Assembly: GCF_003334355.1 (NCBI RefSeq)
Contig: NZ_QOWP01000004.1
DNA: 64,000 nt
Origin: Escherichia coli
GTDB lineage: Bacteria > Pseudomonadota > Gammaproteobacteria > Enterobacterales > Enterobacteriaceae
Strand: one strand, 5' to 3'
Shown: in pieces, positions 37,283-38,098 of the stretch
How the letters are laid out: every line of letters starts with the position of its first letter
Position numbering within the stretch: the first letter of the stretch is position 1
Notes under the pieces: model-generated
Seen by the model: only the letters and a program-made list of their open reading frames with translations
What the model was told of the DNA's origin: nothing
Databases searched by the model: none
Position numbers and translations under genes: made by a program

Positions 37283-38098
37283 ATGTTTTCAATTCAACAA
37301 CCACTACTGGTTTTTAGCGATCTTGATGGCACCCTGCTGGACAGTCATAGTTATGACTGGCAACCGGCTGCCCCCTGGCTCAGCCGTTTACGCGAAGCGA
37401 ATGTTCCCGTCATTCTCTGTAGCAGTAAAACTTCAGCGGAAATGCTGTACTTGCAAAAAACGTTGGGGCTACAAGGGTTACCACTGATTGCCGAAAATGG
37501 CGCAGTGATCCAGCTTGCTGAACAATGGCAGGATATAGACGGTTTTCCACGCATCATCTCAGGTATTAGCCATGGCGAAATCAGCCAGGTTTTAAATACG
37601 CTACGCGAGAAAGAACATTTTAAATTCACAACTTTTGATGATGTCGACGATGCAACCATCGCCGAATGGACGGGATTAAGCCGTAGCCAGGCGGCGCTGA
37701 CGCAGCTTCATGAGGCGTCGGTAACGCTAATCTGGCGCGACAGTGACGAGCGTATGGCACAATTTACCGCTCGTCTGAACGAACTGGGCTTACAGTTTAT
37801 GCAAGGTGCGCGCTTCTGGCACGTCCTGGATGCCTCTGCCGGAAAAGATCAGGCCGCCAACTGGATTATCGCGACCTATCAACAATTATCAGGCAAACGC
37901 CCAACCACACTTGGCCTGGGCGATGGGCCAAACGATGCGCCCTTGCTGGAGGTAATGGATTACGCGGTGATTGTGAAAGGGCTAAACCGTGAAGGGGTGC
38001 ATCTGCATGATGAGGATCCGACCCGCGTCTGGCGAACGCAGCGTGAAGGACCGGAAGGCTGGCGTGAAGGGCTGGACCATTTTTTCTCCGCCCGTTAA
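37283..38098 (+). CDS. yedP: HAD-family mannosyl-3-phosphoglycerate phosphatase homolog YedP (271 aa)
   Basis: HAD motif I DLDGTLL near N-terminus. Confidence 0.9.

Follow-up and report, generated by a model that had tools for sequence, protein, structure and literature searches.

Convergent genes whose coding sequences overlap at their 3' ends form a well-described class in prokaryotes, and 58 or 75 such pairs have been counted in Escherichia coli, depending on the publication (Lillo & Krakauer 2007, PMC2174442; Huvet & Stumpf 2014, PMC4161906). [quoted passage not shown] At the level of transcripts, 276 of 370 convergent operons (75%) were reported to overlap at their 3' ends, over 286 nt on average (Conway et al. 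2014). The convergent excludons detected with ExcludonFinder number 165 in strain MG1655 and include both yedP-dgcQ and yedA-vsr (Sanmartin et al. 2025, PMC12288877). For a pair to be listed in this catalogue, at least 50% of the 58 RNA-seq sets of MG1655 have to show overlap of the two transcripts. Convergent transcripts ending in each other's territory have also been described at overlapping bidirectional terminators (Ju et al. 2019; Wang et al. 2022).

The junction investigated here lies in a window of 64,000 nucleotides, the whole stretch of E. coli DNA that was analysed, in which the chromosomal gene order around the junction is rcsA-dsrB-yodD-dsrA-yedP-dgcQ-yodC-yedI-yedA-vsr-dcm. Its geometry is exactly that of the published 4-nt convergent overlaps, from which it differs in no structural respect (PMC2174442; PMC4161906). 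What it offers beyond this class is the history of the junction, since a GpgS-like gene intervenes at the same place in other Enterobacterales. Typical excludons have a short spacer with a mean of 95 nt, whereas that of yedP-dgcQ is -4 nt; validated excludons show opposing expression, whereas the listing of this pair concerns transcript overlap (PMC12288877). The transcripts of yedP and dgcQ resemble those of bidirectional terminators in that they probably end in each other's territory; such terminators, however, are intergenic hairpins with sharp paired 3' ends, and the yedP/dgcQ junction has no such hairpin. The features that define it are the following.

37283..38098, + strand: coding sequence of yedP (open reading frame list, RefSeq annotation of an identical strain, NCBIfam NF002976)
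38095..39789, - strand: coding sequence of dgcQ, also called yedQ (open reading frame list, RefSeq, NCBIfam NF011955)
38095..38098, no strand: tetramer TTAA with both stop codons inside (sequence)

The product of yedP is an orphan mannosyl-3-phosphoglycerate-phosphatase-related HAD-IIB hydrolase of 271 aa, and that of dgcQ a cellulose-regulating diguanylate cyclase of 564 aa (RefSeq/NCBIfam). Re-reading of the + strand places the TAA stop of yedP at 38096-38098, and the TAA of dgcQ is the reverse complement of 38095-38097. The two genes are therefore tail-to-tail neighbours on opposite strands with both stops within the TTAA (context ...CCGCCCGTTAAGCGTT...). Their coding sequences overlap by 4 nt and the stop codons themselves have 2 nt in common (38096-38097). 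In addition, each stop supplies the third base of the final sense codon of the opposite gene, CGT for Arg271 of YedP and GCT for Ala564 of DgcQ. At its other end, the dgcQ frame reaches upstream to a TTG at 39804, the annotated start being at 39789. YedP scores 508 bits against NF002976 (cut-off 315) over profile positions 1-270 of 271, and DgcQ 1099 bits against NF011955 (cut-off 408) over positions 1-563 of 564. Since both proteins match their NCBIfam equivalogs end to end, the stops sit where the families place them. The 4-nt convergent overlap announced by a previous sequence-only reading, with yedP ending at 38098 and dgcQ at 38095, is thus borne out by the sequence, the reading frames and RefSeq. 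The re-translation by which this reading could have been refuted moves neither stop, the family profiles being covered to the last or next-to-last position.

The interval 37200-39900, which is 100% identical to strain WEM25 and several others, is present in 5364 of the 5426 complete E. coli genomes, and a 101-nt segment centred on the junction in 5285 of them. In the RefSeq annotation of WEM25, yedP and dgcQ map to 37283-38098 and 38095-39789. The same 4-nt overlap is found in K-12 MG1655 (yedP 2025511..2026326, dgcQ 2026323..2028017), and three E. coli records, the most divergent of the matches inspected, are annotated alike. The overlap is real but statistically unremarkable, an ordinary compact gene junction. 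It is already known through the reference annotation and the excludon catalogue; by itself it matters little, the pair being catalogued as a convergent transcript overlap. Among the 11 convergent junctions of the window, two have overlapping coding sequences. The second, located 4 kb from yedP/dgcQ, joins yedA (+) to vsr (-), which share 12 nt at 42287-42298 (TCAAGCGAGTAA).

The same reading had claimed that no terminator lies between the genes and had suggested a terminator prediction on both strands around the junction. There is no intergenic DNA at all, and neither a consensus scan nor a scan for hairpins followed by U-rich tails gives a credible terminator within 150 nt past either stop; the claim stands, and the suggested prediction found nothing credible. 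The consensus scan of 37000-40200 returned four sites where 3.7 were expected from shuffled sequences. The only one of these on the + strand near the junction, at 38059-38075 and followed by a T-run, was rejected: it precedes the yedP stop and its use would give a non-stop mRNA. The second scan covered the window for single hairpins followed by a U-rich tail on both strands. The genuine terminators of the window (dsrA, rseX, yecF/sdiA, amyA/yedD, 47037, 48475) are clearly distinct, with -16 to -21 kcal/mol and 6-7 U, and sites at -11.9 kcal/mol or better form a background of 0.6 per kb per strand. The best + strand site near the junction reaches -6.6 kcal/mol (38079-38081) and lies ahead of the yedP stop; the best on the - strand, at 37848, reaches -11.9 kcal/mol and lies 250 nt beyond the dgcQ stop. 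At the convergent junctions of the window that have a spacer (gaps of 13-139 nt), eight of nine show a hairpin-plus-U at or near the gap, and at the two overlaps, yedP/dgcQ and yedA/vsr, no such site within 150 nt reaches -8 kcal/mol on one strand or the other. The stable GC-rich hairpin with a U tract (A-flanked if bidirectional) that an intrinsic terminator would provide is absent from the junction. Folding of 200-300 nt around it on both strands gave z-scores of -0.94 and +0.95, nothing special, and an Rfam scan of the window returned only DsrA, rseX and tRNAs, leaving the junction empty. As a side observation, the terminator of DsrA lies 13 nt from the yodD stop, another tight convergent junction.

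The sequence beyond each stop has a composition of interest for Rho. Two tracts were identified.

38179..38420, + strand: C-rich, G-poor tract, predicted Rho loading region of the yedP read-through RNA (C/G ratio)
37915..38074, - strand: C-rich, G-poor tract, predicted Rho loading region of the dgcQ read-through RNA (C/G ratio)

The first lies opposite dgcQ codons, to which it is antisense, among them those for RVGGEEF at about 38347-38370. The second begins about 20 nt past the dgcQ stop and is antisense to the final 60 or so codons of yedP. In 80-nt windows, the C/G ratio is 1.6-2.2 in both tracts, the 95th and 99th percentiles of the whole window being 1.79 and 2.31. Both read-through RNAs thus offer at least about 80 nt of untranslated, C-rich and G-poor RNA past the stop. 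Across the 24 related loci described below, the first of five 300-nt blocks on the yedP side has the highest C/G ratio in 12 loci where 4.8 are expected, and on the dgcQ side the first block is the highest in 16 of 24 where 12 are expected, the loci being phylogenetically non-independent in both counts. The tracts were rejected as evidence of selection for Rho loading: the enrichment is modest, the loci are not independent and G-rich codons explain it. They are at least partly a by-product of the codons that they face (GGEEF, EGWREGL), and permissive for Rho loading.

Published Rho data provide the analogy. In E. coli, 51.5% of the Rho regions are antisense to genes (Adams et al. 2021). Downstream of vsr, the same study maps a Rho region antisense to yedA (K-12 2030096, score 10.3), and it places a further one antisense to rcsA. 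The yedA/vsr pair is comparable to yedP/dgcQ in combining a convergent overlap of coding sequences, the lack of a hairpin-plus-U terminator and a place in the excludon catalogue (PMC12288877). It differs in its strong Rho region antisense to yedA, none being listed for yedP/dgcQ. The comparison with and without bicyclomycin in Adams et al. 2021 gives no Rho region antisense to yedP or dgcQ, at a low coverage of 67 and 26 reads per 800 nt, and the Term-seq tables of that study contain no 3' end for either gene. The bicyclomycin data nevertheless contain a Rho-dependent site inside dgcQ itself (K-12 2027287, score 2.67). It is the only Rho site reported here, and its position within dgcQ means that part of the transcription of this gene fails to reach the junction in LB. 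By analogy and from base composition, Rho termination inside the partner gene appears to be the best-supported mechanism.

The evolution of the junction was followed with a seed search by exact peptide in one genome per GTDB species, which yielded 40 loci in which both stops were re-derived. This search returned no Salmonella, Klebsiella or Citrobacter locus, from which nothing is concluded for these genera. In 24 loci, from Escherichia to Buttiauxella, the distance between the yedP and dgcQ stops is -4, -16, -19, -34, +1 or +7 nt, distributed as follows.

Escherichia genus, eight loci (seven TTAA, one CTAA): 4-nt overlap
Pseudocitrobacter and Enterobacter sp. BIGb0383: 4-nt overlap
Enterobacter cloacae group, Superficieibacter and UBA5654: 16-nt overlap
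Leclercia and Silvania: 19-nt overlap
Lelliottia, Huaxiibacter, RIT714 and an Enterobacter MAG: 34-nt overlap
Buttiauxella: 1-nt gap
Franconibacter: 7-nt gap

A spacer large enough for a terminator is absent from all 24 loci, and the drifting length of the overlap is compatible with shifts of the stop codons on a junction devoid of spacer. A different organization is found in Mangrovibacter and two Pantoea species, where the yedP homologue and a DgcQ-like gene are separated by a GpgS-like glycosyltransferase gene (406 aa). The positions of the latter, in the coordinates of each locus, are the following.

L026, 3324-4544: GpgS-like gene
L031, 3317-4537: GpgS-like gene
L040, 3297-4535: GpgS-like gene
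L027 and L035, 3324-4544: GpgS-like gene

The encoded protein scores 347 bits against NF040724, below the equivalog cut-off of 700. The stop of the GpgS-like gene and that of the cyclase gene either overlap by 4 nt (TTAA or TTAG) or lie 7 nt apart. As a GpgS-like gene intervenes elsewhere, E. coli is deduced to have lost the synthase gene, its yedP remaining as an orphan phosphatase. The cyclase gene has thus long abutted the 3' end of the yedP operon. For the study of how convergent overlaps arise and persist, this comparison may be of interest; its main points are a junction free of terminator in many genera, the orphaned yedP and, in some genera, the surviving GpgS-like gene, whose stop lies in one tetramer with that of the cyclase gene.

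The explanation held to be probable combines neutral compaction, the lack of an intrinsic terminator and a termination by Rho of each transcript inside the partner gene, with minor consequences; the junction would be a compacted tail-to-tail one and no device dedicated to regulation. According to this scenario, the yedP operon and the diguanylate cyclase gene that converges on it would have lost the DNA separating them, leaving both frames to stop on one TTAA. No intrinsic terminator fits there, and RNA polymerase coming from either side would run past the shared stop. The ribosome would depart at the stop codon, and the RNA beyond would be untranslated, C-rich and G-poor (38179-38420 on the + strand, 38074-37915 on the - strand). 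Rho would then load and stop the polymerase within the opposite gene, a few hundred nucleotides in, and each mRNA would constitutively have a 3' tail that is antisense to the end of the neighboring gene. In cells transcribing both genes, some dsRNA would form and be cut by RNase III. Given the weak expression of both genes, protein output is probably little affected. A neutral ratchet is compatible with the comparative data.

The sequence-only reading had further deduced mutual antisense 3' extensions from the lack of a terminator. Besides the inference itself, published data support this claim, namely the excludon listing, dsRNA from both genes and an individual duplex. After capture with p19, dsRNA amounts to 14-92 RPM for yedP and 97-400 RPM for yedQ, and only 13.5% of genes reach at least 100 RPM in the stationary sample (Huang et al. 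2020). The transcript overlap expected of a convergent excludon is thus documented in the literature, by the listing and by these dsRNA reads, and is almost implied by the overlap of the coding sequences. The duplex could be located precisely.

38676..38696, no strand: RNase III duplex captured with p19, within dgcQ (Table S3 of Huang et al. 2020, matched exactly in the window)

This duplex lies 578-598 nt past the yedP stop, and antisense RNA therefore exists that far into dgcQ; its antisense strand may come from yedP read-through or from an internal promoter. The consensus scan shows no promoter-like site on the + strand between the yedP stop and the duplex, and among the duplexes listed, none is at the junction itself. 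On the opposite side, SMRT-Cappable-seq reported a yedI-yodC-dgcQ transcript that starts just upstream of yedI; for yedP it reported no transcription unit. This start is at about 41228 on the - strand of the window (K-12 2029389), and read-through from dgcQ into yedP may thus be driven from about 3 kb away. The antisense extensions are probably limited by Rho, both read-through RNAs entering their C-rich, G-poor tracts at once. Besides the lack of a listed Rho region or Term-seq 3' end antisense to either gene and the partly incidental nature of the C-rich tracts, two observations weigh against the combination of compaction and Rho. The p19 duplex is about 580 nt out, further than a prompt stop by Rho predicts. 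Moreover, the junction is free of terminators across many genera, as functional coupling would also predict, and the raised synteny of excludon pairs in general is likewise predicted by such coupling.

The alternative that survives best is indeed a functional one. In a functional convergent excludon, the absence of a terminator would be under selection, and transcription of one gene would repress the other because polymerases collide and/or RNase III cleaves the 3' duplex. Transcription of yedP driven by CRP, for instance, would lower DgcQ, hence c-di-GMP and cellulose synthesis. This alternative is considered unlikely. The pair belongs to the published core set (PMC12288877), but such a listing is close to automatic once the coding sequences overlap, and three quarters of convergent operons overlap anyway (Conway et al. 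2014). Both genes give rise to dsRNA, that of yedQ exceeding 100 RPM (Huang et al. 2020), but their weak expression makes collisions rare. The abutting layout is kept in at least 10 genera and the spacer was regained in no lineage; yet neither the length of the overlap (4 to 34 nt, or small gaps) nor its structure is conserved, and a deleted spacer has no easy way back, so that conservation is the neutral expectation too. A CRP-type site upstream of yedP and the presence of a dgc or pde gene in eight of the 165 convergent excludons (PMC12288877) can also be invoked, even if no expression anticorrelation or phenotype has been reported for the pair and no paper naming both yedP and yedQ was found. 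The conservation, the dsRNA signal and the CRP-type site are equally expected under the neutral model. The coupling of c-di-GMP synthase expression to the neighboring gene, suggested by the sequence-only reading, is possible but unsupported and must be considered speculation. If real, it would give the c-di-GMP network an inexpensive input acting in cis, and would allow a concrete test of whether the excludons of the catalogue do anything.

The possibility that intrinsic terminators or pause hairpins within the two reading frames stop both transcripts near the junction, with little antisense extension, is distinctly unlikely. The candidates are a hairpin at 38203-38230 and two weak hairpin-plus-U sites on the - strand, at 37848 and 37885. 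The first, CCTCGCTG-N11-CAGCGAGG, reaches -16 kcal/mol and spans 105-132 nt past the yedP stop; but it has no U tract, is broken in two Escherichia lineages (L005 and L008) and is missing in other genera, and its role as a conserved pause element or exonuclease barrier was accordingly rejected. The -11.9 kcal/mol hairpin found 250 nt past the dgcQ stop is followed by UCUUUUCC, yet neither of the - strand sites exceeds the background of the window (0.6 per kb). In more general terms, TransTermHP predicts overlapping terminators for 146 of the 165 excludons (PMC12288877), a figure for the whole set and not for yedP-dgcQ itself, and one fifth of the E. coli genes in convergent overlaps do have a predicted embedded terminator (PMC2174442; PMC4161906). 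Even if such elements worked here, an antisense tail of 130-250 nt would remain, and the absence of a Term-seq 3' end for either gene (Adams et al. 2021) argues against them as well.

A narrower version of the functional alternative, in which the excludon has been selected for catabolite control, is quite improbable. Transcription of yedP, controlled by the CRP site at 37165-37179, would read into dgcQ and lower DgcQ, as part of a wider tendency of dgc and pde genes. If true, carbon status would be linked to c-di-GMP and cellulose production. The CRP-type palindrome in question, TGTGAcgtgcgTCAC, is located in the dsrA-yedP interval, about 110 nt ahead of the start of yedP; this type of pattern has five matches in the window where 0.43 are expected, and the K-12 equivalent of the site carries an in vitro CRP footprint (2026 preprint). 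The eight dgc/pde excludons are smrA-dgcM, ybaA-pdeB, pdeD-yoaE, yedP-dgcQ, dgcE-alkA, insL3-pdeA, pdeC-soxS and ymiD-pdeR (Table 1, PMC12288877). About two would be anticipated by a rough expectation that ignores gene orientation, and the source makes no comment on this number.

Bidirectional termination driven by collision, as described by Ju et al. 2019 and Wang et al. 2022, has very little probability here. Polymerases would block each other at a boundary hairpin and be dislodged by the trailing ones. This Rho-independent process was proposed for many convergent E. coli pairs without canonical terminators (Wang et al. 2022 preprint). However, it requires a boundary hairpin to fix the site of collision and favors highly expressed pairs (same preprint), whereas the yedP/dgcQ junction has no unusual structure and its expression is low. 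Finally, an annotation artefact, with one gene truly ending elsewhere and no overlap, was rejected as next to impossible: the stop codons are unambiguous in the sequence, both proteins fill their family profiles on re-translation, and without the TTAA yedP would be extended by 17 codons and dgcQ by 45.

A few additional features of the window can be mentioned. Besides DsrA (36999-37085, - strand, 102.5 bits), the Rfam scan located the rseX sRNA (45488-45577, + strand, 97.7 bits) and five tRNA genes elsewhere in the window. The window and WEM25 are in register and nearly identical only over about 35.4-45.4 kb. Outside this interval, indels shift the register, for example an IS5-family insertion in the fliP gene of WEM25, and WEM25 coordinates are consequently not directly transferable there. 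The spacer between dgcQ and yodC (39790-40026) measures 237 nt, compared with 170 nt in K-12; it contains an additional copy of a repeat of about 35 nt (TTTTATAA..GGCATGATAAGACGCGA.AG) and a longer REP-like palindrome.
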